Below, in pieces: positions 1 through 49,873 of a stretch of DNA of 64,000 nucleotides. Positions within the stretch are counted from its first letter, which is position 1. Every line of letters starts with the position of its first letter. Source of the DNA: Eledone cirrhosa (lineage: Eukaryota); the NCBI GenBank assembly GCA_964016885.1, contig OZ024743.1, forward strand, positions 155,496,001-155,560,000, in the 5' to 3' direction. The notes below the pieces were generated by a model, which was given only the letters and a program-made list of their open reading frames with translations, made no database searches and was not told the origin of the DNA. The translations under genes were made by a program, and so were the position numbers.

Positions 1-1178
1 AGACATTGCGTTGAAAACTGCAACAATTGGATTATCCACATATCTAAGGGAATCACATGATTGGATGATCAAACTCGTTTTGAAACACGAAAGCACCAAA
101 AGATCATATTCCATCACAAAAGATGCACAAAGATACAGTAATGGACTACAAATTTCAGAAGTCCCATTTACTGCTGAAATGGAAAACACAGAAAAAGCAA
201 AGCAGGTAAAAGTAACTGCAAAGAAAGAACTGCTACAGAAACTGGCTAAGAAATGGCAAGAAAAGCCTCTGTATGGAAAATACCCAGAGCGAGCTAACAA
301 TCCTGATGTTGACAAAACTTTAACCCATCAGTGGTTGGCATCCTCTGGACTGAAATCGGAGACTGAAGGACTGATTATCTCCGCACAAGATCAGTGTCTG
401 CCAACAAAAAATTACCAAGCCAACATAATAAAAAATGGGTGCAGCCCATTATGCCGTGTATGCAAAAAACAACCAGAGACCATTGACCATATAATTTCAA
501 TGTGCAGTCCTATAGCTCCAACCGAATACCTAAACAGGCATGACAGAGCTGCACAATACATACATTGGATAATGTGTAAGCATTTTGACCTGCCCCATCA
601 AAAGAATTGGTGGGAGCATCAACCACCTCCCATACTTGAAAAAGATCACATCTCAATCTTGTGGAACTTTAGCATCCAAACAGACCGAAAAATAGATGCA
701 AATAGACCTGATATAATATTGAAGGACTTTCAAAGGAGGGTATGCCTGCTAATTGATATGTCTGTTCCAATAGACAAGAATGTATCTATAAAAACATTTG
801 AAAAATTGAGCAAGTATAAGGACCTGGAGATAGAAATTGGAAAAATGTGGAAATTGAGAACTAAAACAATACCAGTGGTTGTAGGCGCTCTGGGAATGAT
901 ACCTAAGGGGTCTAACGACTACTTATCGCAAATCCCAGGAAACCCGCGTATAGGAGAAATACAAAAGATAGTACTAATGGGAACTGCCCATATACTAAGG
1001 AAGATCCTGTCAATATAAGTACATCACAAGTCTAAACACTAAGGATGCATGTGTGAATATGTGTGTTCTTTCTTGAACATGGCGGACCTTGTTGTCTCTT
1101 GAGGTCACTGGTTGTGACTTGGTGATAACTCGTATAAACATAAAGCAAGATAAATGCAAATAATAATAATAATAATAA
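1..1178 (+). mobile_element. Non-LTR retrotransposon, R4/Dong-like (RLE endonuclease), 3' part with 3' UTR and (TAA)n tail; truncated by the window start
   Basis: ORF ending at 1018 has a CCHC knuckle (CRVC...HIISMC), RHD motif and PD-(D/E)xK-type RLE motif (NRPDIIL...LIDMSVP...K..KY); (TAA)n at 1161-1178. Confidence 0.9.
11..1018 (+). CDS. C-terminal region (Zn knuckle + restriction-like endonuclease) of the R4/Dong-like polyprotein
   Basis: Uninterrupted 335-aa frame with the motifs above; the true start lies upstream of the window. Confidence 0.85.
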   Translation: MKTATIGLSTYLRESHDWMIKLVLKHESTKRSYSITKDAQRYSNGLQISEVPFTAEMENTEKAKQVKVTAKKELLQKLAKKWQEKPLYGKYPERANNPDVDKTLTHQWLASSGLKSETEGLIISAQDQCLPTKNYQANIIKNGCSPLCRVCKKQPETIDHIISMCSPIAPTEYLNRHDRAAQYIHWIMCKHFDLPHQKNWWEHQPPPILEKDHISILWNFSIQTDRKIDANRPDIILKDFQRRVCLLIDMSVPIDKNVSIKTFEKLSKYKDLEIEIGKMWKLRTKTIPVVVGALGMIPKGSNDYLSQIPGNPRIGEIQKIVLMGTAHILRKILSI

Positions 1179-3755: not shown

Positions 3756-5240
3756 ATGTGTCCTCCTTTTGTATTGTTGTATTGCTGTAATGTTTTCTTA
3801 TTATATGTTATTTATTTATTACTTAGTGTTGTCTCTGTTTGGGCATACGTGTGTGGTCGCGTTTTCTGTTTGATGTGTGTTCGTGTGTTCGTGTCTGTAT
3901 GGGTGTGTTTTTGTATTTTATCTTTGGTCACTAGTATGTTTTTATATGTGGGTATTGTTGTTGTAACTGTATATTTATTTATAATTATCTTAGAGCACTA
4001 TGATTGTTATTATTCCATTCATGTTTTCTCTTCAGCTTCGGTTTTCTTAATTCTATTTCAGTTGCTTGGTTAATTTGTCTACTTGTTGAATCTTTTTTAT
4101 GTTTAGATATTTTAATTTCTTTGTCTTTTTATTACCATCATGTCTTAGTCTGGCGTGTTCATATAGAACTGAACTGTCTTTTTGTCCTTTTAATTCATCC
4201 CAGTGTTCGTCTATTCCCTCTCCTATGCTACGGGCTATCTCTCGTATGTATGTCGTTGTCATGCTTTTGCAGGGACCTTATGTACTTAATACACTACAGA
4301 TTACATTTCCAGTTTAAGAATTTATTTGTGGATGTTTAGTACAAATCACACCGGGATTTCTTAAAGGGCTATGGTTTACTGATCAGGGATTTAAACATAG
4401 TTCCTGGTTTGCTACCATATTAATCTTTAAATGTCTTTCTTAGGGTCTTTCTAATTTGGTTAGCTACATCACCTTCAGGGGTAGCATCCACGAACATGAC
4501 ACTCGGGTATCTCTGGTTGACGAACCATGCCGTGACGTCCCTATTTTGTGTCTAGTCCTATATACTCTCTTCCATTATTTGCTCCTGTACAGTAAGCAAA
4601 TTCCTTTCATGTCCATCTCTCTGATAGTCTTATATTTCTTCGTGGCGCCTTTGTATACTCTGATTCTGTCTCTTTGCTTTTAGCCAGCGAATATCATGCG
4701 ATTGATGAAGTGTTGTACGTGTCTCTCCAGTTTAGTTGGATCGCACATGTGGGACACATTCATAAACAGTCTTACCAAGTCTGCTATCAGTATATTTAAC
4801 TTAGCACTTTTGGACATCGCTGAGCTTTTGTGTATTAGGTGCTTGGAGGCGATGGCTTTAGCTTAATGTGAGTGGAGAATTTGTATTGTCTCGTTCATAG
4901 TATGTAACCAGAGTTTAGTGCCTAATACTGGTAATCTATTGTTAGGGTGTTCGGAAAGAAGCTACTGTGATATTCAGGCATATGCTATTAGCTATTTGCT
5001 GGATGTTCTCCATGTTGTTAATTTCTAATTCGGGTTTATTGGTATTCTCTTGTGGGGGTTATCTTATTACTATATTAATATCATGTGCGTAACTAGAGTC
5101 ATGATGTGGGCTATGAAGTTCTCCACTAGTCTTTCTCTGAGTTTCCTTTCCCACCAGACCATGAATATGTTGGCAATATCGCCAGCTATGCTAACGCCGA
5201 TGACTGTTCCTTCATCTTGGGTGTAAAGTTTCTTATTAAA
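3756..5240 (-). mobile_element. Decayed, 5'-truncated PLE of the same family as 21664-25868
   Basis: Nucleotide similarity to ~21935-23475; GIY-YIG remnant (TTTYIREIARSIGEGIDEH). Confidence 0.85.
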
Positions 5241-12798: not shown

Positions 12799-15700
12799 AT
12801 GCCTCGTGATAAAAAACGAAGTTGCCTCAGCAGATTGTCTATCGCTGTAGTTAAGGAAAAGCAGGTCGAGCTAATGAAACTGAGGAGCAGAGGACAACAA
12901 GATTATCCACATTAGCTGCCTACAAGGCAAGACTCAATACTTCGCCACATCACATCGATACTCAGTAGAAAAACTTGCGGCCCGTATGGCAAACAATGCA
13001 CAAACAACTGCTGCTTCACGATCAAATGAGTCTACAGGGGAACGTACTATTCGGTTAGCGGTGAATGCTGCCGAGACTGTTGCTTCTAGAGTTGCGGAGA
13101 CGCCTGAACAGCGTGCAAATCGAGCAAAACGCAATACTGCCGCGACTACTGCCTCAAGAGCTGCAGATACACCTGAACAGCGTGCAACGCGAACAAAACG
13201 CAATGCTGCCGCGACTACTGCCTCAAGAGCTGCAGATACACCTGAACAGCGTGCAACGCGAACAAAACGCAATGCTGCCGCGACTGCTGCCTCAAGAGCT
13301 GCGGAGACACCTGAACAGCGTGCACCTCGAAGAAAACGCAATGCTGCCGCGAATGCTGCCTCGAGAGCTGCGGAGTCCCCTGATCAACGCATACGTCGCC
13401 ACGCTCCCGATTGTGCTTATCGGACTAATGCGAGAGCTTCTAAAACATTGGTTGAAAGAACTACTCGAGTACAAACAATTACGCATCATTAAGCTGTTCT
13501 GCTTCGTGCATCAAAACCTACGATGAATAGATTGGTTTTTAAAGCCTTTCATTATGACCTCTCAGAAAATTATACTGACCACAAAGATGTTGCCATTGGT
13601 CGTATGTCCAAAATCCGTCCACACTCTAAAGCACTAACTTGGCCGGGAGAGCCTGTTGGTCTATGCTGCTCACATAAAAGGTGTGTCTGCCCAACAGCCC
13701 TGAAACTCCACACCCTTTAAAGTCCCTTCTGCTTGGTGAGCATCCATATTCTCTAGATTTCATAAACCGAATACGGGCATTCAATTCTGGATTTCATATG
13801 ACAAGTTTTGGTCATAAGCCCATATCTTATGGAAACTGTAATCCCACTTTTACCATTCAGGGAGAGACGTACCATTTAATCGGTTCTCTTTTACCAACAT
13901 ATGCTTTTCATCATAATTTTCTTCAGATATACTTCATGGGACCAGAGAGAGAGAGCAAATTGCATGTAGGGCCACTGTTGCTCCAGGCACATACACGGCT
14001 GTTCTTGGACCACTTCAGGAAATGCTTCATGAGCACAACCGGTATATCAACCAAATTAAAACGGCTATTCAACGAGACCCGGCAGACAATGCCGACTTTA
14101 ACGTTGTTATTAGAAGTGACATGACTCCTGTTGGGGAACATCACCACTGTTACAACCGACCCGCAACAGAGTAGGTTGCTGTTTTGCTTTGCAATCCCAA
14201 TGCAATTCTTTACAAAAGAGATATCATCCTAGAGTGGCAGGACTCCCGTGTTAAGAAGATCAATGAATTAAATCCAGCCTATGACGCCCTTCAATACGCC
14301 TTACTATTTCCCTATGGAGAGGATGGATACAGTCCTCATATCCCTAGCATTGTACCTACAACACACCAAACAGCACAGCCTCCAAAAATGGTTTCCCAGA
14401 TAAATTCTACAGTTACAGATTGATGCTTAGTACGAACAACTTCAACGGTCTTCACAGAGCAGGGGCTCTTCTGAATCAGTATTGTGTGGATATGTATGCT
14501 AAGGTAGAATTTACTCCCCTTTGAGTCATGTGTACCTATAATTTTTTATTAAAATCTTTGCATGACCATCCTATTCCATACCCTTGCACCTTGCAGATTG
14601 ACTCAGAACGACTTCTTTGGATTTGCCATAATCAAAAGAAGCTCCGTGCAGATGAATATGCCAAGGTTCGAGACGAGATTAATAGCAATGACAATGTAAC
14701 TGCTTCTGAGTTTGGCATTCGAATCATCCTGCCATCGTCATATACAGGCGGCCCGAGGTATATGCATGAACAGATGCACGACGCTCTCACATACGTTCGT
14801 CTTTACAACCACCCTGACCTTTTCATAACGTTCACATGCAACCCCAAAATGGGAGGACATCCAAATGAACTTACTTCCGGGCCAACGACCAGCAGATCGC
14901 CATGACATCACTGCCCGCGTTTTTCATCTTAATGTTCGTAAAATGATTGATTTGTTTAAATGTGGTGACATTTTCGAGCCGATAAAATGTTTTATGTATA
15001 CTGTTGAATGACAAAAATGTGGTCTACCACACGCCCACATCTTACTCTGGCTACAAAGAAAACTTCGACCTTCTGACGTGGACACAATTATAAGTTCAGA
15101 ATTTCCAAATCCCAATGAAGTCCCCCCAGTTGTACGAAATCATTCGAAAATTTATGGTTCATGGGCCATGTCGGCACTTTAATTCTACGTCTTCATGCAT
15201 GACAAACGGAAAATGCACTAAGAAATATCCACGAAAGCTTTTGGCTGAAACGATCACAGGTAACGACGGTTACCATTATATCGCAGAAGAGCTCCAGGAC
15301 ATGGCGGTTTCACAGCAACAATCACAGATGGATCTAACCGAAAATTTACAATTGACAATCAATGGATTGTTCCACATAACAAGATGCTATGCAAGATATT
15401 AATGCGCATATTAACGTTGAATAGTATAACTCAGTTAAATCTATACGTTACGTTTGCAAATACGTCAATGAGGTATCCGATAGAGCCGTCTTTCAAGTGG
15501 CACAAACAGGAACAGCAGATGCATCAGCAGATGAGGTAGAACTGTTTCAAATAGGGCGTTTTTCTCATCCAATGAGGCCGTTTGGAGAACGTTTTGTTTC
15601 TCTATACACAAACGATTCCCCCCTGTTCAACATCTCAGTGTTCACTTAGAGTACATGCAGAGAGTTTACTTCACCCAAGAAAACTTACGTCAACAGGTCC

Positions 15701-17782
15701 TTGCCCCACGTAGACAACTTTGACTGTATTTTTCGAACTCTGTATGGTTGACTCCTACGCAAACTCTTCTGTATGTTGATGTTGCTCATTATTATTGTTG
15801 GACCCATTCAACTTGCTTATGGCAAAGAAGAAAACAGGGCCGATATATCGATTCAGATCCTGCCATTTTTGAAAGTGACACAATAGGACGCGTCTATACT
15901 GTTCATCCTTTGAACATCGAATGTTCCCATCTTCGACTGCTGCTTCACGTTGGATGTGGACCAACATCCTTTGCAGCCCTTCGCACAGTGGACGGTCATT
16001 TATGCAAGACATTCAAGTACGCCTGCTTTAAACGGGGACTCAACGATACGGACAACCATTATGAGAGTACACTTGAGGAAGCGTCTCTCCGTCGATCTCC
16101 ATCAAAACCTCGGCATCTATTCGCTATTATGCTGGTTTTCGGCAACTTTGTTAACTCGCCTTTGTTGTTGAATAAATACAGGGACCACATGTGCCACGAT
16201 ATATGGCTTCAAACCTGTCAAGCTACCGAAAATTCCACCACTGCTTTTAGCCCTATATGTATAACGCTGGTCTAATTATCTTGGGGGACTTAGTTGTGGC
16301 AATTGGAGGCCAACGTTTGGAGGCATACTGCCTCCCTTCTCCGGATAGAAACCAAGAGCAAATTTCTAATCGACTCCTCCTTAGAGAAACCAGCTACTAC
16401 AAAACCAAGCTTCGACAATACGTAGCTGTCAACGAGCCTCTCCTTAATCCAGATCAAGAATCTGCATACGAATATGTTCTAAACAAGGTATACAGCAATA
16501 CTGGTGGGATTATCTTCATAGATGCACCTGGAGGTACCGGTAAAACATTTCTGCTTAATATTATTCTTGGTAAGGTAAGGCAGAGTGGTGACATTGCACT
16601 TGCTGTTGCCTCTTCCGGTATAGCTGCGATTCTTTTAGAAGGTGGGCGCACAGCACACTCGACCTTCAAGCTGCCACTGAACGTCGTCCATCAAGAGAAT
16701 CCCATCTGCAATATCTCACATAGTTCTGACGAAGCTGCTATGTTGATAAGCTGTAAACTAATTGTGTGGGATGAAGCAACCATGTCCCATAAAGGATCTC
16801 TTCAGACACTAGATGTCACAATGAAATATCTTAATTCTAATGACATTATATTTGGAGGAGACACTCTCTTCTCGCAGGTGACTTCAGACAGACACTTCCC
16901 GTGGTACCAAATGGATCACCTGCTGATGAAATGAACGCCTGCTTAAAAAAAGTCCTGTTTTTGGCAGTTTTTTGAGGTACAAAAACTAACAATTAATATG
17001 CGATCGCTATTACAAACTGGTCGTCCGTCTACGCCATTTTCCACTCAACTGTTCCAAATCGGTGATGGCCAACTTGAGTCCGACGACAATGTAAACATTG
17101 ACACGTCTACCATTGGCGCTCAGTCTCAACGCCCGATGATTTATGTTCTTCAGTTTATCCAAATCATTCAACTGAATTCATGAATCCTGATTGGCTTTGT
17201 GAGAGGGCTATTCTTGCACCCACAAATGTTGCTGTTAAGCTGATCAATCACGGAATAACTGGTCAGTTACCCTCTATTCAACGCTGTTACAAGTCAGTTG
17301 ACACTGTTACAGACGTTGATCAAGTGACAACCTTCCCAACAGAGTTTCTTAACTCTCAGGATCCTCCAGGACTATCTACTCACGAGTTGTAGCTACACGT
17401 TGGAGCTCCTGCTACGTAAATTAACCCCATCCCCTTTCTTTGTAATGGAACAAGACTGGTGGTTAAGAAACTGATGAACCTTGTAATTGAGGCAGAAATA
17501 ATCACAGTACCCGGGCGAAATGAATCGATTTTTATTCCCAAAATTCCTTTTACCTCTTCTGATTGTCCATTTCTCATGAAAAGGTTACAATTCCCACTCA
17601 AGATTAGTTTTCCAATGACCATAAACAAATCTCAAGGCCAATCTCTTAACGTTGTTGGTTTGGATCTTCGAACCCATTGCTTTTCACATGGTCAGTTTTA
17701 CGATGGCTGTTGTCGGGTTGGTAATCCTGACAACCTATGTATTTATGCTCCTGACGGGAAAATCAAAAATGTTGTGTATTAA
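12799..17782 (+). pseudogene. Helitron RepHel gene with multiple frameshifts and stops
   Basis: Consecutive ORF fragments (12986, 13681, 14184, 14528, 15115, 15748, 16257, 17180, 17459) tile a RepHel; probable start MPRDKKR at 12799. Confidence 0.88.
13060..13390 (+). repeat. 69-bp (23-aa) coding tandem repeat in the Helitron N-terminus
   Basis: RNAAATTASRAADTPEQRATRTK repeated about 5 times. Confidence 0.9.
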
Positions 17783-21614: not shown

Positions 21615-21666
<52 letters not shown>

Positions 21667-21884
21667 TGTTATATTTGGGGAGGGTCATATTTGCGTAATA
21701 TTGCCAGAATTAATAACAGAACACACTCACTGTTTGGTTGGTTTTCGCTTCTCGCTGTCTTTTATATATATATATCTGCGATCTAACTTACTCGGTCCTC
21801 AATGTTGCCATTGACTGACCGGCGGTCAAAAATAATACAGATACAATATAGACAAACACATATATATATAGTTTACATAATTTA

Positions 21885-21926
21885 CATAAATCTTTCGTTG
21901 CACATCTGCAACATCGTCAGTGGTGT
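21885..21926 (-). ncRNA. Degenerate or atypical hammerhead motif in the PLE 3' UTR
   Basis: CTGACGA-t-gttgca gatg tgcaac-GAAA; stems I and III pair poorly. Confidence 0.45.
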
Positions 21927-22185
21927 TATATTCATTGTTCCTCCTGTTGTGTTGTATGTCTACGCCATTTTTTTTTTGTATGTTTATTTATTTATTTGCT
22001 TGTTTGTTTATCTTATTTTATTTTGTCTTCTTTGCGCATGCGTTTGCGTGTGTGTATAGTGTTATGTGTGATGTGTGACTAGTGTGTATAGTGTTGTGTC
22101 TGCTGGGTGACTAGTGTGTGTTTATGTGCTTGTGTATGTATTTATTTATCTTATTTTATTTAATTTAATTTACTTATTTATTTAT

Positions 22186-25100
22186 TTATCTTAGGTCAGT
22201 GTTGTTTGTTTGGGTGTTGTTGTTGTTCCACTCATTCTTTCTGTTTAGCTTTGGTCTTCTAATTTCTATTTCACTGGCCTCTCTGATTTGCCTATCTGCT
22301 GGGTCATTCCTATGTTTAGATATTATTCTAATTTCTATGTTGTCTATGTTACCGTCATGTTGTTGTCTAGCATGTTCGTATAGTACTGACCCGTTTTTTC
22401 GTCCTTTTAGTTCCCCCCCAGTGTTGGTCTATCCTTTCACCTATGCTACGAGCTGTCTCACCTATGTATGTTGTTGTCGTGTTTCTGCAAGTACCCTCTG
22501 TACATCTTATGCTATAGACTACGTTTCTAGTTATACAGTTTATCCGGGGGTTCACCTTACATATGATACATTTCCTATTGGTACAGTGGGTTTTCTTAAA
22601 AGGGTAGGTTTTGCTGATCAGGGATTTTATGGTGGTTCCTGGCTTTTCTACCACCTTTATTTTTAAGTGGGTCTTTCTCAGGGCCTTTCTACACTGGTTA
22701 GCTAATTTCCCTCCAGGGGTGGCGTCCACAAACATGACACTCTGATATCTCTGGTTGTCGTACCATGATGTGGCCTTCCCTATCTTATGTCTAGCCCTAT
22801 CTAAGCTATTCCATGATTTGCTCCTGTATAGTGGGCAAGTTCCTTTCATGTCCAGTTCTATGAGGGTCTTATACTTTTCCATGGCTCCTTCGTATACTCT
22901 GACTCTGTCTCTTTGGTTGTAGCCAGAGAACTGCATGCGGTTGATGAAGTGTTGGATGTGTCCTTCCATTTCTGTTGGGTCGCACATGCTGGACACATTC
23001 TTCATCACTCGTACCAAATCTGCGATCAGAATATTAAACTTAGCACTACTGGACATTGCTGAGTTTTTGAGTATCATGTATTTGGAGGCCATGGGTTTAG
23101 CATAGTGTGAGTGGAGAATTTGGGCTATCTCGTCTATAGTGTTAATCCAGAGTTCTGTGTCTAATACAGGTAGTCTATTGTTAGGGTGTTTGGAAGGGAA
23201 GTCTATAGTTACAGTTATACTCTGGTGTATGGAATTAGCTATCTGCTGGATGCTTTCCATCGTGCTACGTTCTAAATCAAACTTGTTAGTGCTCTCTAGT
23301 GGGGGTGTTCTTATAACTATATTGATATCGTCTACATAACGAGAGTACATGATGAGGTCTATGGAGCTTTCATTAAGGAGATCTTTAAGTCTCCTTTCCC
23401 ACCATACCATGAAAAGTTTGGCAACATCACCAGCTATGCTGACGCCGATGGCTGCTCCCTCATTTTGGGTGTAGATTTTCTCATTGAACTTAAATATGTG
23501 GCCCTTTAGGGTAGTTTTGATACTAGCCCCTATTGCATGTGCGACCATTTTTCTTACCGGATCAGTGTTTTGGGGGGTCCGTATAGCTTTGGTCCACCCA
23601 ATCCACCTTCCTATGGGAGTCTTTTTAGCCATTGAGGTTATGGTGGGGGGTCTACCTCTTATAGGTCTACTAGGGCAGAAACATCTAAGGTCATGGCTGT
23701 CTAGGTAGTCAGTGTCGTAGGTAAGTCTAAGTAGGAGGCCCAGTTCGTCTGTGTCGACGTCGCAGAACTCCACCTCACTCTCAATGATCATCTCCACACA
23801 TCTTTTCACAGCAAAATCAATGTTAATGGATGGGTACAGTGACACCACATCCATGCTGCCTATTATGCAGTTGGATAGGCTCCTGTTTTTGTTGCACTCA
23901 CTGATTCTGCTGAGGAGGTCCTCTGTACTTTCACATACATCTGGGGACATCTTGATTATGGGGCGTATAACCATTGAGAGGAAGTAGGAGATCCTGTAGT
24001 TGCTAGCTATACTAGCTCCGCATACGGGTCTTGTTGGTGGTCCTGTTGTCGGGTCGTCGACTGTCTTGTGGTCTTTGCGGAGCCCATACAAGGGTGGTAT
24101 GCCATTGTTAGACGCCTGGAAGTTGTTGGCAGTGCGTCTGCTTGGCTTTAGGATGTCAGTCCACATCATCATGTGAGCGTTGAGGATTTTTTCTCTCCCA
24201 TCGTGTGTTAGTTGTGCAACTTCGCTCGTGTTGGTGATGTGGGGTTTCATTGCCTCGATGTAGTTCGGCATGCTATCTATTGACATCCTACCATACTTAT
24301 CTGTGGGTAGACACACTACCTCACCATCCCTTGTGCGCTGCTTGAGGCTAACCAAGCCTTCTACAGGTTTTATCCCAAGTTGTTGGGCCTCTGGTCTGCT
24401 CTGTCTCATAGTGTACCTGTCTACTACTTGTCTAATCTTATTTCTAGCTATGGTGAACTGTGCCTCCGTCTCGTCATCTATTTGCTGTGGTATGCAAACT
24501 CTTTTATTAAAGGGTAACCTCGTAGGATATATATTACCCATCTTATATGTTTTGTCAGCTGGGTTGAAAAATAGTTTCTCTAAGGGGTTGTCGTTATTTC
24601 TATCGTCATAGATGTGTGTGTTGCTATTATTGTTATCATGGTGGTTGTTGTTGTTTCTATCATTAGCATTAATATTATTATTGTTATGATTGCTAGATGT
24701 ATTGTTGTTTACTTCACCGTTATTGTTGTTGTTGTTACTGCTATTTCTACCATTGTGGTTGTTACTATTATTATGTTTCTTGTTTTTGTTGATGTTGCTA
24801 CATGTACTATTTCCATTATTACCACTGTGGTTATTGTTGTTGTTGTTGTTCGTATTGTTACCGTTATTACTACTGTGGTCACTGTTGCTGTGTCTGTGGT
24901 TAACGTTTCTATTATTATTATTATTGTGGTTGTTGTTGTTCTGTCTATCGCTAGTATTATTACCATTATCACTATTTCTCACTTTCCTGCCATTGTTATG
25001 GTTATAGCTGTTATTTCTATACCCAGAGTTATTGTTTATATTACTACTACCGTTATTATTGTTGTTGTTGTTTACCTTTGCATTCCAACGTATTTTTGTG

Positions 25101-25813
25101 AAACACTTTTCCAGCTCCGTTTTGCATTCCATAGGGTTAATCTTTTTGTAGATGGCAAATTTTGGTGGTAACTTTAGGATTTGTTGTTCTTGTTCACTGA
25201 TTAAAGTGTTCCCATAGATATTTACTGTGTGGTCATTGGTAAATTCTTCCGGTAGTTTTACATCACTCATACGGATGTTGTCGATGTTATCTGGGTATTT
25301 TTGAGAATATTCGATTTTCCTTTCTTGTAGTTTTTTCTTATTCATCCATTCTAATTTCTTCTTGAAATGCCTACAGCATTCGTTTTGAGCATATTTCGTT
25401 TCGCTTCGGATGACGCTCATGAAGTCATCTCTCTCGTTTGCTGTGATGAGATTTCGGATTTCCTTACCGTTGATGCGTTTTTGTCTGTAGAGTGCGTTGA
25501 CTTTTGTGTATGTTGTTCTTTTCATATTAACTGTTATTGTGTGTTTTAGCCGTTCAGCTTGTGTTGTGTTCAATAATAAATTATTTACTTGTTTTGATAT
25601 GTTTGTTGTGTATGTTTTGGAGGAAACACAGTGTTTTAAGAAGCGGATTTGTTCTGTTGTTATTGTAGTTTTTATATAACAGAAAACAGTGTCTTTCAAT
25701 AACCTTTCAGCTTGGCACAAGCTAATGCCATAGCGGCGATGAATTAGTTTTGCGAGGTTTTTTATATGAAATCGTGTGTCGAAACAGATATTGTTATATT
25801 TGGGGAGGGTCAT
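22186..25813 (-). CDS. PLE polyprotein: Asn-rich N-terminal region, RT with fingers insertion, C-terminal GIY-YIG endonuclease (one extra G at 22413-22419)
   Basis: TDKYG, SMDVVSLYPSI, GAAIG, YSRYVDD, LPVLD, CxxxxCxxC linker, NVVYSIRC...YIGETAR. Removing one G restores the C-terminus seen in the paralog at 4053-4262, with stop at 22186. Confidence 0.9.
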
Positions 25814-26559
25814 ATTTGCGTAATATTGCCAGAATTAATAACAGAACACACTCACTGTTTGGTTGGTTATATATATGTAGATAGCGAGAAAAAAGACGAT
25901 TATTAAGAAGAAAAAATATATTTTCCGCCTTTTATTTTATTCTTGTTTTTTCTGCGTTAGAAAATGTTTAAAACAAAATATTTCACTTTGTGTGAAGTGT
26001 TAAGGTATTAGTTAATTTATTTATTGATTTACAATGGCATTTATTTATTAATTAATTTAATTATTAATATATTTAATTATTGTCTATTATCGGTTTCAGC
26101 ATGTTATGGATTATCAAAGGAGGGAATTTGTATTGGTGTAAAATGTTAGAGAGAAGATAATGTCATGTTGAACATGTTAAAGAAATGGGAAAGAAAGAGT
26201 AATATTATTTTTAAACCAGGTTTTTGAAGTAAAAAGGATAATGAAAAAAAAAAGGGAGTGATGTGGAAGATGATAACGTATTGGGAAAGAAAGAATAATA
26301 TTATTTACAGGCATAGTTCTTGAGGATTAGCAGTTCAAAATGCGTTATTATGGCAAGCGCGCTTGGTTAGTCCATGATGGAGGCAAATGGTAGTCTTGTG
26401 TCTGATATGTTTTACCATTTTAGAGAGTTAATATGCAGGGGTAGATAATCCAGGGTGGTCGGGTAGGGGAGAGAGAGATGAGAGAGAGATGGATGAGAGG
26501 GGGTAATTCATTTTATATAAGAAAAAGGATTAGGTAGGGTGTGAGGGAGGTAACTCTTT

Positions 26560-32315: not shown

Positions 32316-32356
32316 TGATGTACTAGTTTCTAGCTTATTAGCTATCGTCAGCACTG
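32316..32356 (-). ncRNA. Minimal type I hammerhead, family D
   Basis: cagtg-CTGACGA-tagct aata agcta-GAAA-ctag-TA-catca; exactly 441 nt from the previous copy. Confidence 0.8.
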
Positions 32357-34516: not shown

Positions 34517-36812
34517 AATATACATACATTACACATAGGTATGTGAAGGGCAAGGCAAAAAGAATATATGGGGGGGGGGGGGGGGCATAGGAAAATGTGA
34601 AATATAAAGGGAGGTAAGGGGGAAAATATATATATATACAAGAGTACAGAACGTAGATTCACCAAAATAAAAACCGTAGCAGAAGTAAAGAGCAGAAAAG
34701 GAGTTCAAGGCGGTTGATTTATCATAGGAGTGTCAATCCAGTTACAGATCAGATGTTATTTCAGATGAGGACAGCATCTGAAGATCTCAATCTTTGAGTT
34801 AAGGCATGCGGAAGTGGCTCTCAAGTTTAGCAAAACCCTATACTTTTCTGTGGTACGCAAAGAACAATTCTTTGTGCCCCTTTGGTACTCCCTCTCATGG
34901 TCTAATATAGACCAATCAATAGAGTACGGGATGTTACTATCCTTGAGTTCCCACACCTTACTAACGAGGGCCGTTGATGTTCGTTTATCGGAGTGCTTAA
35001 AAGAAGCGACATATGTGTAAAATCTGGTTTTAAACCTTTAATGGGTCATACCGACATATCGCTCACTCCTGGCTGGCTGGATGTTGATTACCGGTGTTAT
35101 CTTAGCCTCATAAACAACAGATTTGGTGTTACATTTACCCTGCAATGGGCTTTCATCCGGCTTCCTGCAACTGCATCCTGGATTTATTCTCGTATGGTTT
35201 GAACTGGTAATTTTGGACTTCAGAGATGGGCAACAAGAGTAGCTGATCTTAACTACGTTCCTATTAAATATCTTATAATATCTATGATTAGGAGGAACAT
35301 GTTTGTCTAAGAGGTCAAGGAATTTCCTTCCTACATTAGTTTTGACAGTTAGAGAGAAGGGGTATGTGAACCAAATAATCTTCCTTTTCCTGTTATTGTA
35401 GTTAGTTTTAGGGGTGGTGGTGGTGGTGGTGGTGGTGTGGGTAGGTAAATCCTTTTTTTTTTCTGTAAAACCGCTGTTCTTAAAAGCTTTATTAATATAA
35501 GGGGCGGCTTTATTAACATTTCTATAGACGAAGATAAGGTAGAAATCCTACGGCTAATGTTAGGAATAAGATTATTAAAAAGTATAGGGGGATGGCAAGA
35601 TTCTTTGTGTATATACCTAAGATTTTCATTAGGTTTATGATAGGGTTTAAAAGAGGCGGTAAGTAGATCAAGATTAATATCAAGAAAGTTAGCATTAGTA
35701 AGGTTCGTATCTATAGTAATTTTAAGGTTAATATTAGCAAAAGTATTGATTAATACTTTATGGAATTTATCAAGGTTATCGCCGTTGGTGGTATGAGAAA
35801 CTGTTAATCCGTCATCAGGGTATAAACCGATATTATGGGACGGACATTTCTCTTTCAGGGTGTGGAGAAGGAATAATCCTACTAAGTCACACACATCCGC
35901 ACTGTCACATGAACCCATTGCAACATGAAAACAGTTTTCAGGGTTTGACTTTTTAACCCAAATATTATCATTAGTAAAGAGTAAAGTGTAAAGTTTTTCT
36001 AGCATGAAAGATAATGTCTTTTTCTAATTTAGAAATATTAATGAAGGGTCTTGCAAAATCTAAAGCATTAGTTAATAAGGAAACAGTAATAGATGGGTAA
36101 AAATCGACAATATCAAATTGGGTAAATCTACACTTATATATTATAAATCTACACGTGTATATTATTAAACCAAGAAATAACAGAGGAAGTATTTAGCCAC
36201 TGTGATAGGTCAGTGTTAGTTCTAATTTGGAGAATTATTTTTCTTAAGATTTTCTTACTTTCAAGGCCAACCTCGGATTTAGCCGGGTTAATCAGTCTAC
36301 AACTAGGTCGATTAGTAAATCCAATTTATGGTCTTTAAGGGTAATATATGCTCAACGCTGAGCTAGGCTTTCAATCCGGTTATCTATTTGTAAAGAACTA
36401 GCTAGTTCTTTACTTTAGCTTCTTTATTGATAGTATTGTAGGTATTATTATTAGTTAATTGATATTTATTGATAATACTATTAGTTCAAAGTTGGTTATA
36501 CAAAGTACTATTAACTTCAAAGAGATTTTTAGTTTTATCAGAAAGAACAAAAGTGTTTGTAGAATTTCTAAAATTAGAAATATCGTTAGATAGTTTAGTT
36601 TGAAAGTTATTATTGTACTTACGAAATTTGATATCACTAATTAGATTAACAAGGTCTAATTCGAAATTGGCCATGCCTTTAATTCTAGGTGGATATTTAC
36701 GGGATTTAATGTCAAAACAATCTTTAGTATCAGCACTGAATAGTCCATCGTAGACCATTGCCTTCCATCTCATTCTTTTAACGACTTGTTCGATTTTATC
36801 TATGAGGATTTT

Positions 36813-38599: not shown

Positions 38600-41500
38600 C
38601 ACCTATCAAATACCAAATGTCTTAAAACCAACACAAAAAATATGCCTACTGACCAGCAAGCCCAAAACGGGCGAAATTGGTTCTGATAATGAAATTGACC
38701 TCTTAATAAATACATGGTTTTCTCTGTCCCAAACAATAAACATTAACGCGTCATGTCTGAATGAAATTGCTGAAAAACAGCTCAAACCTTTACCACGAGG
38801 TCTGCTAAGCAATCCCCTAAACATGTAGAAGTCTCTTTCAAACTTATTCAAAACCACTTTGAAAAACTTCGACATATTTATACCAATGGACAAACAGAAC
38901 ATCAGCAACTACAACAGCCACAACAACAAAAACAGCCAGAAAATCAGGAGCAACCACTACTGAATTCAAGCATAATAGCTGAGTTACTGAATGACAGTAT
39001 CCCTCAACCACTCACTCAGCCATCATTATCGCCATCACCATCATCACCGTCACCATCTTCTGCCACATCAACTGCTAGTAATGGACCACTGCTTTCTCTC
39101 CCACCACAGTTATCATCACCATCGTCACCACCACCACTTGTTTCCCCCACAACACCACCACAACCATGTCATAGTCAAAAGAACCTTTAAAAAGATATGG
39201 AGCGGTGTGCGCCCCCTCACTACACATACTAGAAACCCCAGAATATGCCGCTACTCACTACGCAAGGGCTATGCACACGTAGCGACTGTATATTTACCCA
39301 TTTACCGGGTACTAGGCGCACTAACACTGCCAGCCAACACCAAAGCACGTTGCCCGCACGCATAATCAAGGTCCCAAAATCTGCCCACATTCCTAACGTG
39401 AGAGGCTATGTCTGCTGACTGACTGTCACTTCACTCATCTTCCTGCGACACAACGCACAAACAGAAAAGGGGTTCCATGCCAACACACGAACTACAATAA
39501 AGTCGCCTTCTGCTGCAGTAATGCTGCTCCAGCCTCTTCACAAATACATGATTACAACAACAAAAACAACAAAAGTAATGCTGTTCCAGTCTTTTCACGA
39601 AGACGTAATCAACAAATACAACAACAATAAAATAGGGGGAACTGTAACCCCAAATCCAATCAAAAACTGCTCTCTGAAGAAGAACATTTTTCTTTTTTAG
39701 CCATGAACCTGTCAAAAGCGATAGAGAAAAACATTTTAGCTATCACCCAACACCATCCTTGCTGTCTCTAACTCACAATCTCAAAACAAGCCCCCTGCAA
39801 CAGGGAAAACCAGCCACCAGACTAGCCTCCACATTTTTCTCAATACACAAGGTATCAGCCCATCCATCAATGCACAGAAATGGAAGATACAATTCATTGA
39901 GGATTGGGTTGGTAAACATCCATTTCAAATCCCCTTTTTCATTCTTACTGAGACCTACCTCGACCACTCCCAGCTGGGCCGTATGGGTTAAGATATTTCA
40001 CAACCATCCGTGTGGATCGCGTTGGCAGAAGGAAGGCTGGAACTGCCATTTTCCTGCATGATTCCTTTACGGCAGATGGTAACTCAACATTCTCCAATGG
40101 CTACTGTGCAAAATAAAGCCACCACAAACACCCATAATCTGCTTCAAAGAACGCCTCATCCGGTATTACATGCTTTATTAAACAGTGCCATTCTAGCAAC
40201 AAACTTTTGATGGGAGACTTTAATCTACTCTGTGTCGATTGGTCTACATGTAGTTTGAAACCAGGCACCACAACCAAAACCACTGACAAAGAAGCTGTTG
40301 AGTCACTTCTTGACTTCATGAATGGGTTTTTCTTGTCCCAACTTGTCCTTTCACCAACGAGTCATCATAAGAACATTGTGGATCTAGTGTTTAGTAACCA
40401 CACTAACACTATACTTAATATTACAGGGCAAAAATCCTTCTCTTTCAGACCATGACATAGTTATTTGTAACCTGAGATTCCACCAGCCGAAAGCTAATCC
40501 CAAGTTCCTCTTTCATTAACACATTAAATACTACCAATAGCAACACACACATACGATGGCTATCGCCCTGCTTGATTCAAAAAAATATAAACTCCAGCAT
40601 GATGACCATCATCAATAACCAGAAGAGAGGTGGGCCATTGAGAAAATCAAACTCAACCACAAAGTGTTCTTTTCATTTGCTAAAAAGCACAAGGTCCCGT
40701 CACCACTGTTGGCACTCTAGTTGATGAAAATAGCACACTCGAAGACAATGTCAAAACCATGGGCAAGATACTGTAGAAACAATACTGCTCTGTTTTCAGC
40801 AATCCTGATATGGCCAATATGGGCTGTATCAGTGATGTTACACTATATCAGATATATCGTTTGGCACCCTTGATGTCTTAGCGGAAATAAACGAAATTAA
40901 ACACAATTCAGCGGTATGCCCCGAAAGGTTCCCTGCTTATGTCCTGAAGGTGTGTCGACACCAACTTGCATCTCTTCTTGCTAATATGTGGAGGAATTCA
41001 CTGGGCACTGGCTATATTCCTGAAAACTTTCAGTCCCAGTCCGTTGTCCCAGTCTTCAAAAAGAGAAATAAGTCCCTTGCATTGAACTACCGTCCTATCT
41101 CACTCACCTCTCAAAATTATCAAGGTATTTGAGAGTGTGGTGAGATCCCGAATAACCCACTTTCTTGAAGGCAACGGCCTGCTGAACTCCAACCAACATG
41201 GGTTCCGTAATGGAAGAGACTGCCTAACGCAGCTCCTGCATCACTTTGACGATGTTTTGAGAGCCTTGGGAGTGGGCTCAAACACTGATGTCATCTACCT
41301 AGATTTCAGCAAGGCTTTTGACAGGATTGATCATAAGATTCTACTGAAAAAACTATCCCATCTTGGTGTCCCTGGAAGGTTACAACAGTGGATCAAATGT
41401 TTCCTGACAGACAGAAACCAGCATGTTGTAGTCGAAGGAGTAAAATCAAGCCGTGCCAAAGTCAGCAGTGGCGTCCTACAAGGCACTGTGTTGGGCCCAC

Positions 41501-41782
41501 TTCTTTTCATCATCTACATTAATGACATTACTGACATCATCAAGCACAGCAACATAATAATCTTCGCAGATGATTTCAAGCCCCAAAGGGTCATCAATGA
41601 TGTGGGTAACAGGACTTGCCTTCAGTCAGACCTACTGGCTGTTATCCAATGGGCATAACAGAATAATATGCGGTAAAATGAGTATAAGTTTGATTTAATT
41701 CACTTTGGGTATAATGATGCCTTGAAACTACCATACTCTCTTCCTTCGGGTGAAACTCTAGTGGCATCCAACAACATCAGAC
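38600..41782 (+). mobile_element. Decayed CR1-like LINE (ORF1 remnant, APE, RT), 3'-truncated
   Basis: MGDFNL, NYRPISLTS, QHGFRNGR, YLDFSKAFD, SGVLQGTVLGPLLF, IFADD; 5' boundary uncertain. Confidence 0.85.
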
Positions 41783-43872
41783 AGATTTGTAGTTATTCAA
41801 TAGGTGTTTGGAGACGTGTTGGCAGCGTCTGAAAAATTCATTTCTCGTGTTTATACAATTACTATTGCATAATCTCTTTACAATAGTTATTCGTTCGTCA
41901 ATACATAAGCCACACGTCGGTTTTCCCCTTGCTTATGGCTTGGACATAGTGATGGCTTTCCATTGAATGGAGTAGTCTATACTTGAGTCCTTGAGGGACC
42001 ATACCCGGCTCGCGAGTTTCGTGTATGGACGTCTGTCCGGGTACCTAAATGTCGGATGGTGGTTCAGGAAACGTTCTTTAAACCGGCCCTCCGCCATACC
42101 CACATAGGATTTGACCTCCTGTGGTTGGTTTGGTCGGTTGGAAGTGACCACAATTTCATAAATTACAGCTGGTGTGTTGCATTGGTTGAAGGGCGCAAGC
42201 TTCGGGCTTACGGCAAGAGCACCCTGGTGGGGTGTTGCTCCTAGGGCTGCTGGTGATGCGGGCCTTCATGTTCTTAGCGCAGGAGTATCTTAGTTTAACT
42301 TTGTGTCGGTTAAAGATGGAGCGGTATTTATGACCTATGGGAAATTGTCTATCTAAGAGGGATAGACATTGTTTTCCTACATTCATTTTAACGTTGAGTG
42401 AGAAGGGAGGAGAGAACCAGATAGTTTGTCTATTGTTGCGCTTACTTCTCTTATTTCTGTTGTTGATAGTGGGAGAGTAAGTGATAGGTTGTGAGAAGCT
42501 CCTGTTAGCTAATGCCGTGTTATTGTAGGGTGTCGCCCTGTCAAAGATAGTCTTATTAGAGTAGAGGTTTGAGATTCTAGTACTGATATTATTTACGAAG
42601 TTTCTAAAAACAGTGGGAGGGTGGCATGAATCCTTGTGAATGTAATTGAGTTTTTCGTTTAGCTTATGGAAGTGTATGTGCAAGTGTGTGCGACGGTCTA
42701 AATTAATGTCTAAGAAATCTACACTAGAGAGGTTGGTAGCTACTGTTATCCTAAGTCCTGAATCATTTAAGGTAGAAGCTAAGTCTTTTTTTAAACCGGT
42801 CGAGGTCGTGACCACTTTTATGGCTCGATAAAGTCAGTCCATCGTCGCGTTATATTCCCGTGTGGAAGTCCTGGAATCTAACACGTAATATGTCGAAGAT
42901 AAATATGCCAACCAAGTCACATACGTCAGCACTGTCAAACGATCACATGGAGACATCGAATAGGTCTGCAGTTGTAGACTTCTTTGCCCCGACTACTCCG
43001 TCGTTGAAGAGTAGCGTTTTCCAACAGTGAGCGATGATTTCCCTGTCTAAACCATCGACGGTGGTGTAAGTGGTAGCGAAGTCCAACGCTTTGTTTAACA
43101 GGGTCTCTGAGATCGACGGGTAAAAGTCGACAATGTCAAACTGTGTGAACTTCGCTTTTTTGGATTTTAAGGAGTTAAACCACTTAATTACGGAGTCGAT
43201 GTTCTCCCACTGGGGCACGTTGGATTTGGTCCTAATGGTCTTAACTATGTTTCTAAGTATAGCCTTACTGACTAGTCCCATATCTGTGCCTGCCGGGTTC
43301 ATTAGTATACATGTGGGGTTAGAAGTAAAGTCTACCTTGTGATCCTTGAGGATGAGGAATGCCTCCCGCTTAGCTAGAGACTGTAGCTTCTTATCTACCT
43401 TAAGGTCGGCGGCAAGTTCTTTGGCTTCTGTATTAATGTCGTGGTCGGCCATAGGGTTAGCTTTCCTATATTTACAAGAAATAGCGTGGCGGAAAGTGGT
43501 GTTGTCGACTTCGTAAATATTATTAGTTTGTGTCGGAAAGAACGAAGGTGTTATTAAAAGACCTAAATGTCTTAATATCATTTCTGAGTTTAGTTTGAAA
43601 GGTGTTAGTGTGTTTGCGAAAGGAAATGTTAGCGAGTAAGTCAAGAAGGTCCGTCTCAAAAGGTTACATTAGGAGGGTAGGCTTTCGATTTCAGGTTGAA
43701 CGTGCTATTGGTGCCTGTAATTTTGCCGTCAAAAGCTAGGGCTCGCCATCTTAAGCGTCTGACAATATGTTCCGCTTTTTGTAGGAGAAGCTTTTGGTAA
43801 ACATGGATGGAGGGAGTTGGAATGTTCTCCAGGGAGTAATCCAGTTCGTATAAATCTGTAGTGACCTACATT
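41783..43872 (-). mobile_element. Hydra-clade-like PLE, near full-length but frameshifted ORF
   Basis: YSLENIP, RLRWRA, FDIVDFYPSI, FDVSM, WFSPPFS, CSCRKPEAC (CxCx5C), YVGMAEG. Confidence 0.88.
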
Positions 43873-46412: not shown

Positions 46413-47639
46413 AAACAATCTACAGACGGAAAACTTATAACTCAACATATAAACTCTGAAATTAAGAATTTAGCTGAAATTATACCAACAGTTATCAAAG
46501 ATACAAGAGAAAGCCTACCACAACCCCCTTGGATGTCAGAAATAAACGAAAGAAATTTGGAAAACAAAACACATCGAATAAGAAAAGAAATGTGGAAGAC
46601 ATGGAAAAAATTCCTTAACATAAGAAAACAAAATTTCTGGAAAGCATACAGATGCGAAAAATATGTCGAAACACATTCGAAATGGCTCTCTCTAACGGCA
46701 CCCATACTCCCTCGTAAATACCTAATTACAGAAATTGCAGGAGAACCAGAAGAAGAAACAAAACTCCGATGGGAACTTACATTGACAAAATTCAGGACCG
46801 ACATCTCCATTTCTGAATGTAAACAATCCCGCTACAAAGCCAAATATGAAGCTATTGATGACCAAATTGAAGTTGAAATTTCAAAGCTAACGACTGGTAT
46901 TATAGCTGAAAAACTACGAGAACTATGGATCGGAGATATCTCAAAAGAAGAAAACAAATCAAGAAAGGTATGGCAGCAGAAACAATTATTTCTCGATGAA
47001 TATGCTGCAAATTACGGTAAAGACTCTGGAACCCTGAGAAAAAGCATTAAAAGTGGACAATCTCATCAACACAACATACGCCAGAACACGTGCCAACACA
47101 AACACTCACCTTACCTTGAATCAAAGAAGAACTACGGTAATAACTCTTCGCTTTTTCTACAAAAACACCCTATCGCACACAACATGAACAAAAAGCACAA
47201 ACACGATAGGTATTCCTTTGACCAGACCATGAGAAGTAGTAAAACCAGGAGATCATTCTCAAGATCTCAACAGAGACTACCAACAAGGAATGTGGAAACA
47301 AAACGTAGAATAACCAGATCACTCTCAAGATCTCAACAGAGATTGCCCACAAGAAACTGGACGAAAAAACGATCTAAACCTGAAAGCAAACCTAGGTCAT
47401 TTTCCCAGATTGTTAAAAATAATGCTAACAGGAAGAAAAATAATATACAGAATACCAAAAATAGGACAAAATACATAACGAAACCAAATATAATATCACG
47501 ACCAAAAGTTCATCAAGCGAACACCAACAGGAATAAAAATCCTGAACAAAGAAAAATTCATTTTTTAACGTCAGGACAACAAAAACCGGAAAAAGAAAAA
47601 CTCCAGGAGGAAACATACCCAAAACAGCTGTACACGTAG
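46413..47639 (+). CDS. PLE ORF1: helical/coiled-coil-like N-half and basic R/S/K-rich C-half (probably 5'-truncated; first ATG at 46533)
   Basis: Frame open from 46413 to TAG at 47639; internal repeat SRSQQRLPTRN x2; overlaps the ORF2 frame by 94 nt. Confidence 0.7.
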   Translation, partial: KQSTDGKLITQHINSEIKNLAEIIPTVIKDTRESLPQPPWMSEINERNLENKTHRIRKEMWKTWKKFLNIRKQNFWKAYRCEKYVETHSKWLSLTAPILPRKYLITEIAGEPEEETKLRWELTLTKFRTDISISECKQSRYKAKYEAIDDQIEVEISKLTTGIIAEKLRELWIGDISKEENKSRKVWQQKQLFLDEYAANYGKDSGTLRKSIKSGQSHQHNIRQNTCQHKHSPYLESKKNYGNNSSLFLQKHPIAHNMNKKHKHDRYSFDQTMRSSKTRRSFSRSQQRLPTRNVETKRRITRSLSRSQQRLPTRNWTKKRSKPESKPRSFSQIVKNNANRKKNNIQNTKNRTKYITKPNIISRPKVHQANTNRNKNPEQRKIHFLTSGQQKPEKEKLQEETYPKQLYT

Positions 47640-49873
47640 ATCCTAAAATAATTAATTTATCTAAAAGAGATCTTGACAATGGTGAAATGCAAATTCTGTC
47701 AAAAGGACTGAAATTCACACCGACTCCAACAGTCAACCACCAAGAACTGAAGGAGGATACCCAAGAATTCTGTCGAAAATTACGTCTTGTAGAATTCTTC
47801 GCTGATAAAAATAATGAGAGTGATGAATCACTAGTAAAGAATAAATCAAATTTCACTCCGCCAAAAGGAAGAAATATCTATTTCGACCAATACATTGACA
47901 TCCTGTATAAATTTCCTCTTAGACATAATACTAATGTTAGGCCAAACATTAACAAATCAGAAATGTCTGCACTTAAACGTATACAAAATGATAAAACAAT
48001 AATAATTAAACAAGCAGATAAAGGGGGTGCAGTTGTTATAATGGATACTGAATACTACAAGGATTTGGTTGAGGAACAACTGAAAGACACAACATTCTAT
48101 CATGAAATACCGTCAAATATAGACCACAACATCATGAAGAAGATCAACAACCTGGCTTCAAAATACCACAACTCATTTACTGATAAGGAAAGAGACTACA
48201 TCACCAATTTTGAGCCGAAACCCAGCAACCTGTATGGCCTACCGAAAGTTCACAAGTCAAAAGAAATACAACTGGCAGTAAGAGAACAAAACAGTGAGTA
48301 CATTAAATTATTACACCCAAAAGACTTAAAACTTAGACCTATTATAGCTGGTCCAACATGCCCCACTCACCGTCTAAGCAATTTTGTTGACATTATTTTG
48401 AAACCACTATGTATTCACATACCCAGTTTCATCCGGGATGATATCGACTTCCTGTCCCATCTTCCCAAAACCACGGAAACGAATTCACTTCTACTCAGAT
48501 TTGATGTGGTAAGCCTTTACACCAACATTACACATGATTTAGGAATAAAGGCGGTTAAATACTGGGTGGAAAAACATAGAGAAGTGATTCCCATTAGATT
48601 CACAGCGCCATTTATATTAGACGCAGTTAAACTTATTCTGGAAAACAACACTTTCTTCTTCAATGGAAAGAATTACATCCAAATTAGAGGCACAGCGATG
48701 GGAACGAAGTTTGCTCCCGTTTACGCGAACTCTGTAATGGGATACTTAGAACAACAACTCTACCAAGAAATAGAGGAAAAATATAGTACTGACTTTAGAA
48801 AGTACATTGAAAAATCTTGGAAGAGATACTTTGACGACTGTTTCATCATCTGGACAGAATCTTTAGATACTCTGGATGAGTTCAATATCCTCCTGAATAA
48901 CCTACACCCATCTCTCTAATTCACAAAAGAGATGAGTAGGACCAAATTACCATTCCTAGATATAATGATAATCAAAAACGACACCACCATTACCACGGAT
49001 ATATATTATAAACACACAGACACCCATCAATATCTGAATTTTAAGTCGTGCCATCCACCTCATACAAAACGCAACATCCCATACTGCCTAGCCAGAAGAA
49101 TTTGTACCATTGTAGAAGATACGAATACCAGGTACAAACGCCTAACAGAACTAAGAGAATTTTTGCTCAAACAAAAATACCCATCTCTACTTATAGAAAA
49201 TGGCATACAGCGGGCTATAAAAATACCTATACAACAACTTAGAACAACCCAAAGAAGAAGAAACCAAGAACTGGTCATACCATTTATAATGACACACAAC
49301 CCATGTCACCAGAATATCTTCAACACTGCCAAAGCAAACCTACTGATCATTGCTCAAATTAATGAATTAAAAGGCTTAATCACAGATCGATCTTTGACTC
49401 TTAGTAAAAGACAGCCAAAAAATTTGAAGCAATTGCTAACAAACGCAAAGTTTGACCTTAACAACAAAGACCAATCATTCACTGTATCTAAATGCAATGA
49501 TAATCGATGCGGCACATGTCAATCCATACACGCCGGTCAATATATGAAAACAAAAACTGGAAAAATATTCACAAATGCAAATATGAACTGCAAAAGCAGA
49601 AATCTAATTTACTGCATTAAATGCCCGAATTGTGAAGAACTATACGTCGGTCAAACTGGAAATGCACTATCGGAACGTGCACGGGTACACCGTCAACAAA
49701 TCAGAGACCCAAATGTCCGTCAGATACCCCTAAGCGGCCACCTGGCAACATGTGGTCAGGGAATATTTATAATATTCCCATTCTACAAATTACACAGCCC
49801 AAATGAAATCAAGAGAAAAATCAAAGAAAAGAATTTTATTGATAAATTCAAACCCAAGCTAAATGAACAATAA
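47567..49873 (+). CDS. PLE ORF2: RT + GIY-YIG, with one in-frame TAA at 48917-48919
   Basis: IINLS..KGLKFTPTP, ADKGG, FDVVSLYTNI, GTAMG, RYFDD, LPFLD, CNDNRCGTC, NLIYCIKC..YVGQT; ORFs 47687 and 48932 are in the same frame. Confidence 0.9.

Follow-up and report, generated by a model that had tools for sequence, protein, structure and literature searches.

Does a Penelope-like element (PLE) that keeps its GIY-YIG endonuclease (EN) at the C terminus carry, between motifs A and B of its reverse transcriptase (RT), a relative of the telomerase IFD, or an insert of another origin at the same place? The question is raised by one element in the window, i.e., the whole stretch of 64,000 nucleotides of Eledone cirrhosa DNA that was analysed. 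In the available text of PMC8557442, the IFD is assigned to Naiad and Chlamys, measuring about 20 aa in Naiads, with sporadic IFD-like regions in the EN-minus Coprina, and none is shown for Penelope/Poseidon, Nematis, Neptune, Athena or Hydra; the role of the IFD in PLEs is stated to be unknown, and the IFD is used to link PLEs with telomerase. The answer that we regard as fairly probable is that the element belongs to a Nematis-related PLE lineage of marine animals with a lineage-wide RT insertion of 70 aa, likely gained independently, which is predicted to form a helix-and-loop subdomain and likely aids the holding of the RNA template or primer.

The element is a 4.2-kb PLE on the minus strand, running from 25868 to 21664 with (TA)n flanking both ends. 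Its parts, and a relative elsewhere in the window, are as follows.

25869-25876, strand not given: short (TA)n, read from the sequence, 5' flank and target sequence
25789-25868, minus: upstream 80-bp terminal repeat (pseudo-LTR), with the first Met of the ORF inside, at 25813
22367-25834, minus: one ORF, 1155 aa from stop to stop
25085-25171, minus: N-terminal PPKF...RW motif, counterpart of the Nematis-like GPKF...RW
24590-25069, minus: Asn-rich low-complexity linker, residues 256-415, 50% Asn
24293-24307, minus: DK motif, DKY in the window copy
23834-23851, minus: RT motif A, Asp 662 at 23851
23561-23779, minus: insertion of ~70 aa, residues 686-758, between the helix after motif A and the helix before motif B
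23444-23458, minus: RT motif B, GAAIG, Gly at 23458
23327-23338, minus: RT motif C, YVDD
22413-22419, plus: C7 run (G7 on the coding strand), frameshift inside the endonuclease
22189-22428, minus: second half of GIY-YIG (H, R, E and N residues), in the next frame
21887-21920, minus: minimal hammerhead-like core (CUGACGA, one unpaired base, 6-bp stem II, GAAA)
21664-21743, minus: downstream 80-bp terminal repeat, 3' end of the element
21618-21661, strand not given: (TA)n microsatellite, 3' flank and target sequence
4004-5240, minus: decayed 5'-truncated relative, 76% DNA identity, starting just before motif B and adjoining (TA)n

The ORF encodes, in this order, an N-terminal domain, the Asn-rich linker, the RT, the thumb, a Zn-finger linker and the first half of the GIY-YIG domain. 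The C-terminal GIY-YIG of the original prediction is confirmed, and it splits at the C7 run, which is also the single homopolymer indel noted there in a frame of more than 1100 aa. Two Cys of the CCHH signature lie between GIY and YIG, and the His residues are spread over both frames in the window copy and unbroken in homologues. A Pfam search of the whole ORF gave no match at E 0.1; the Pfam GIY-YIG model scored above its cut-off in one of 12 homologues scanned and weakly in 2 others. The DK motif reads DKS in 74 of the 77 homologues scored. The linker spacing of the window copy, C-x4-C-x2-C-x7-C, recurs identically in 26 of the 38 homologues scorable under a strict pattern (102 of 120 have the EN, and 64 are unmatched by the pattern). 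Asn-rich inserts were previously known from Adineta vaga PLEs (PMC3846280). The two 80-bp direct repeats, earlier thought to be one G apart, are 100% identical. The hammerhead-like core with stem II, whose pattern agrees with the description in PMC4209133, is found at 21920 and also in 4 of the 56 loci of the lineage, a set in which many sequences end before the 3' end of the element; stem I of this candidate is weak in the window copy (fold z -0.5), and an Rfam search returned no hammerhead match, only three chance matches on the (TA)n run. The traits of EN-bearing PLEs are thus present: a telomerase-related RT in a single ORF, GIY-YIG with CCHH, a pseudo-LTR overlapping the ORF start, and 5' truncation.

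The offset from the motif A Asp (23851) to the motif B Gly (23458) is 131, i.e., the 130 intervening residues originally counted, and the other two PLE RTs of the window (47546/47687 and 51342) have offsets of 62 and 61, i.e., 61 and 60 residues between, in line with the earlier 60-61. A protein search with the last 726 residues returned 267 proteins, the best 120 of which (32-67% identity) were aligned with the query into 121 rows. All 113 rows that could be scored have an offset of 129-135, so the insert is present in other copies; the remaining 8 lack an anchor residue and were left unscored. Among metagenome loci, 14 ORFs with all motifs have offsets of 127-133. A profile of the insert alone matches 47 of the 56 lineage loci, and none of the other stored proteins outside the lineage matched it better than E 1.6. 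The offset is 57-63 in the 106 measurable of 146 relatives of the Nematis-like element at 51 kb, 61-63 in nematode-type Nematis proxies, about 61 in Neptune-like RTs, 83-89 in 26 of 28 Naiad-type loci and 56-64 in 13 further ORFs, mostly Coprina-like. The block is complex, as had been claimed, and is conserved across the lineage in the motifs E-L-G-L-Y-L, C-P-x-R, G-R-x-P-T-I-T and R-x-x-x-W; with numbering relative to the Asp of motif A, the residues E36, L39, R62, G66, P69, R82 and W86 are each retained in 94-98% of the 112 rows compared. Its first part is acidic and its second basic, with mean net charges of -3.8 and +4.5. On this sequence conservation, the insertion is a trait of the lineage and not a peculiarity of the window copy. 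It is hardly credible that the extra block is intronic, results from misassembly or entered this copy by a secondary insertion. Introns are possible in PLEs and the interval holds three in-frame GT..AG pairs of 190-230 nt, but all of these lack both a canonical donor and a pyrimidine tract, the protein sequence of the block stays conserved in homologues with as little as about 32% overall identity, and an independent contig from another study covers 23205-24025 with 3 differences and no gap.

The lineage is spread over three phyla, cnidarians, molluscs and echinoderms. Hosts were named for 3 of the 10 clusters examined, which come from Octopus vulgaris, the jellyfish Sanderia malayensis and the sea cucumber Holothuria leucospilota, and the nearest named protein, at 67% identity, is from O. 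vulgaris. The viral contig set yielded no relative and no Naiad motif match, and a PDB sequence search gave two bacterial RTs only, at E 0.0014 or better. In the ESM Atlas the insert region leads to unnamed eukaryotic clusters (0.93) and a homologue to generic PLE clusters. The divergent members L051 and L082 keep the length of the insert (offset 127 in L082) and lose the GRxPTIT motif. As side observations, L082, L083 and L088 are very divergent: they are extended at length ahead of motif A, and their insert is degenerate but of comparable size. Such members are of use for breaking up the long stem of the lineage in RT trees. Another member (L030:2-4792, plus strand) has a 1597-aa ORF with N-terminal Thr/Asn/Ser/Ala repeats, and its N-terminal part holds a stretch resembling Ulp1/C48 peptidases (Pfam E 0.0012, under the cut-off).

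The PLE RT thus occurs here in a conserved and apparently undescribed form, by which a widespread lineage related to Nematis can be recognised. No description of it was found in the papers searched, and the lineage motifs were not found in the available supplements of PMC3846280 and PMC11167929. It is unlikely that the lineage has already been catalogued in Repbase or Dfam, as Penelope or Nematis families, with the insertion noted there or in another source. Its abundance in well-sequenced phyla speaks for such an entry, as does an O. vulgaris repeat annotation in which 31 Penelope-like families with recent activity appear without assignment to clades (PMC13282606). However, the available text of PMC8557442 states that canonical PLEs lack an IFD and its Fig. 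S1 has none for Nematis, its supplement contains neither the motif B nor the RPPT words of the lineage, and the available part of a 2026 preprint (10.64898/2026.07.22.740005) still gives eight clades; moreover, since the ORF has no Pfam match, automated classification can miss the lineage. For the same reason, annotations of marine invertebrate genomes likely under-represent this family, young and abundant as it is. The original statement that such an insertion is unreported for clades with a C-terminal EN needs qualification: a short Cys-rich insert lies between RT motifs 3 and 4 of A. vaga Pen3 and Pen5a (PMC3846280), and there are the sporadic IFD-like regions of EN-minus Coprina (PMC8557442).

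For the trees, the reference clades were proxies labelled by motif and architecture and not published reference sequences. They comprised Neptune-like proteins, the 51-kb family with its wider kin, single Poseidon-like and Penelope-like proteins, Coprina-like loci, and Naiad loci with the DKA motif (and an N-terminal GIY-YIG in the 4 loci that reach far enough). The wider kin of the 51-kb family include nematode-type Nematis; one of these, from Gnathostoma spinigerum, has the motifs given in Figs S1 and S2 of PMC8557442. The label Nematis for the 51-kb family itself is provisional, its linker being different. Athena, Chlamys, Hydra and TERT sequences were absent, the insert columns were removed, and the poorly aligned Hydra-like fragments of the window and the short L082 were excluded. 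In the RT trees built without the insert, the lineage forms one clade (100/100) on a long stem (0.96-1.41). It is sister to the 51-kb family in the first tree of 52 rows (97/89), lies within an unresolved Nematis-like group in the LG+G4 tree of 61 rows (93/96), and again falls within this unresolved group, outside its nematode-type subgroup, in the C20 mixture tree of 39 rows (98/96). Profile scores against the reference groups run in the order DKS (366), the 51-kb family of the window (340), nematode-type Nematis (302), DKT (270), Coprina-like (245), Neptune-like (207) and Naiad (112). In the EN tree, the lineage joins nematode-type Nematis and the DKS group (92/81) and is separated from Naiad and Neptune (100/98); grouping its EN with either Naiad or Neptune is rejected (p=0.027). 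In AU tests on RT columns alone, neither lineage + Naiad (p=0.254) nor lineage + Neptune (p=0.185) is rejected, while the control Nematis + Naiad is (p=0.012). Because of the long stem, the RT placement is less firm than the bootstrap suggests. Taken together, these comparisons indicate that the lineage, unplaced in the original prediction, is most likely Nematis-related, with its RT in a broad Nematis-like group of proxies and with other places left possible by the AU tests.

Insert-less Nematis-like groups with DKS or DKT were also observed (P0425, P0438, P0465, P0473, P0486; P0452, P0457, P0475, P0482, P0497). The DKS set scores closest to the lineage and may include its sister group.

Two AlphaFold2 models were obtained, one of 726 aa (mean pLDDT 90.6) and one of 331 aa (mean pLDDT 91.1). 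The insert is predicted in both as three or four short helices with loops and isolated bridges only, without any strand of 3 or more residues, with block pLDDT values of 86-98 (long model) and 65-98 (short model). In both models it follows the helix after motif A and precedes a long helix before motif B (helices 103-116 and 188-208 in model m5511315dfcd6), which by this prediction puts it at the telomerase IFD position, between the same two helices that flank TRAP. The RT core matches Candida TERT best (Z 15.7, rmsd 3.1, 224 aligned), followed by human TERT (14.5), a group II intron RT (14.0), R2 (13.7) and LINE-1 (13.5); telomerase as the best structural match is what is expected for any PLE RT. 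TRAP-bearing TERTs align over 220-242 of 331 residues, LINE-1, R2 and Prp8 over 224-231, and Tribolium TERT over 211-214. As the TRAP-bearing TERTs align over lengths similar to those of LINE-1, R2 and Prp8, the 70 extra residues appear to add little or nothing to the TERT match, an indirect argument from ranges and aligned lengths, not residue pairs. Fold searches with the RT models containing the insert listed no insert-specific match, and hhalign found no similarity between the insert and the Naiad IFD (probability 0.4%).

The competing view of the origin is that the lineage branches deeply, its long stem having led to misplacement in the trees, and that its insert is an IFD kept from an ancestor and sharing descent with TRAP and with the IFD of Naiad and Chlamys. 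The shared position, the telomerases as best structural matches of the RT, the RT-only AU result for lineage + Naiad and the A-B length all agree with it, the offset of 131 falling within the TERT range of 118 (human) to 152 (Tetrahymena) counted from Fig. S1 of PMC8557442. Nevertheless we judge it distinctly improbable, since the insert is predicted to be helical and not beta, shows no profile similarity to the Naiad IFD and seems to add little or nothing to the TERT match, while the EN, the N-terminal RW motif and the profile scores point to Nematis-like kin that have no insert. The original use of the term IFD is not supported in the sense of homology, the excess also being more than three times that of Naiad. 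In the models, the insert shares its position with TRAP but not the beta-hairpin. Its gain was most likely independent of the IFDs of telomerase and Naiad, with convergence in position only, so that the suggestion of an unplaced-looking PLE lineage with an independent gain agrees with both the RT trees and the AlphaFold2 models.

Under this independent gain, the insert would have arisen once, on the stem of the lineage. From known PLE biology (PMC8557442, PMC11167929), the nuclease would nick (TA)n or AT-rich DNA, the RT would copy the element RNA from the nick by target-primed reverse transcription, and copying would leave 5'-truncated and partial-tandem copies, the partial tandems giving rise to the terminal repeats. 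Human TRAP has an extended beta-hairpin that touches DNA and RNA (PMC12920920). By analogy, the conserved basic half of the insert, with its Arg, Gly, Pro and Trp, could contact nucleic acid leaving the active site and thus be an analogue of TRAP in role with another fold; we put the chances of this at about even. A bolder version, which we advance only tentatively, would make the lineage a ninth clade of PLEs, as yet unnamed, that is abundant in cnidarians, molluscs and echinoderms and missed by standard RT profiles, in which a subdomain of telomerase length but different fold sits at the TRAP position and does the template or primer gripping of TRAP. Less probable is that the same independently gained insert serves as a structural or protein-contact surface, towards the thumb, the nuclease or a second subunit, and touches no nucleic acid. 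The acidic first part with its hydrophobic ELGLYL helix would suit such a surface, as would the divergent L051 and L082 with their retained length and lost GRxPTIT; a Poseidon PLE protein is predicted to dimerise (PMC11167929), and the IFD is dispensable in some Naiads (PMC8557442). On the other hand, two Arg, a Gly, a Pro and a Trp are among the most conserved positions; they lie in a loop of net basic charge, at the site of the DNA and RNA contacts of TRAP.

Among described groups, Nematis (PMC8557442) is the nearest by RT tree, EN tree and profile score. The lineage shares with it the RT followed by a C-terminal GIY-YIG, the CCHH, the linker spacing of Nematis_C4 and Nematis_Cr and the pseudo-LTR; its hammerhead-like core is a candidate counterpart of the minimal hammerhead of that group. 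It differs in the A-B offset of about 131 instead of 61-63, Nematis having no A-B insertion in Fig. S1 of that paper; in its DKS, PPKF, LRKDHK and GxIG, where Nematis has DKG, GPKF, (LP/LI)KxHK and GxxMG; and in a second short insert after motif C, a very long RT stem and a core identity of only 17-27%. With Naiad and Chlamys (PMC8557442) it has in common an insertion between motifs A and B and, for Naiad, (TA)n targets, but theirs is an N-terminal nuclease with DKA and no canonical hammerheads, whereas its EN follows the thumb and its motif is DKS; the Naiad IFD of about 20 aa is unrelated in sequence to the excess of about 70 aa in the lineage. Telomerase is alike in where its insertion sits, between the helix that follows motif A and the one that precedes motif B, has a similar total length and gives the best superposition of the RT core, yet TRAP has an extended beta-hairpin and works with the TEN domain (PMC12920920) and the insert has predicted helices and loops in an autonomous transposon with its own nuclease. 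Pen3 and Pen5a of the Penelope/Poseidon group (PMC3846280) likewise have a C-terminal EN, Asn-rich coding inserts and an insertion that separates RT motifs 3 and 4, but this insertion is short, Cys-rich and limited to two families, in contrast to the fixed one of about 70 aa in three phyla. Hydra has DKT, no CCHH, a CxCX5C linker and no IFD, unlike the DKS, CCHH, CxxC linker and long insert of the lineage.

The insert would be a third one at the IFD site, much longer and, by prediction, differently folded, and it is fixed throughout a lineage with canonical domain order. This suggests that new subdomains have settled at the site more than once, and position by itself becomes weaker evidence that such inserts are homologous. 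If the lineage is a ninth clade with a TRAP analogue, it would form together with its insert-less Nematis-like sisters a natural plus/minus pair for function at this position in the PLE and telomerase RT family. Such a pair could be tested, since in vitro activity has now been achieved with a PLE protein (PMC11167929).

The stretch is wholly or partly present in twenty runs from 16 studies, with at least half of its words in 6. Three contig sets (X1, X4 and X7), from runs that need not be of the window's own individual, were aligned to 21664-24560. One base fewer at 22413 is seen in 42 X1 contigs, accounting for 187,802 of 394,399 summed depth, and in the sole covering contig of X4 and of X7, and since that base is missing there, the other copies read through the nuclease. 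The extra base is either specific to the window copy or an assembly error. Among the 130 rows of differences, 40 were read and include 23 in-frame substitutions, of which 16 are protein-changing, one of them at the DK motif, a ratio that would fit neutral decay of the window copy. Summed depth in X1, which is not a copy number, drops from more than 500,000 close to the 3' end to some 31,000 at 24.5 kb, which fits many 5'-truncated copies. With the frameshift absent from other copies, the family is young and the window copy is probably dead. The youth and possible activity attributed to the element thus hold for the family and, in view of the frameshift and the substitutions, probably not for this copy. 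Contigs ~99% identical to the element over 21664-24560 occur in three differently coded organisms from three studies (X1, X4 and X7), which could reflect close species, mixed labels or recent horizontal spread.

The window contains other mobile elements. A Neptune-like PLE at 47546-49873 (plus) has DKG, a long CxxC linker and one stop between the RT and the thumb/EN, and an Arg/Ser/Lys-rich ORF at 46413-47639 lies upstream of it. The PLE at 51342-53106 (minus), of a Nematis-related family with many relatives, has a C-x4-C-x5..7-C linker and not CxxC. By their motifs, we take the stretches at 12884-16934 (plus), 2-1018 (plus) and 41086-41658 (plus) to be Helitron-like Rep/helicase fragments and two non-LTR retrotransposon fragments; window positions 2-1015 have a weak zf-RVT match. 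Decayed fragments at 42156-43668 (minus), 35041-36023 (minus), 62779-63270 (plus) and 56777-57199 (minus) have motifs like those of the Hydra rows in Fig. S1 of PMC8557442, and with these the window holds at least four PLE types. Further hammerhead-like cores lie at 32351, 33124 (minus) and 37661 (plus), two of them near-identical, in opposite orientation and about 4.5 kb apart. Naiad retroelements (L001-L028), some in tandem arrays, were found in about 20 bacterial genome assemblies, where they are most likely host contamination.
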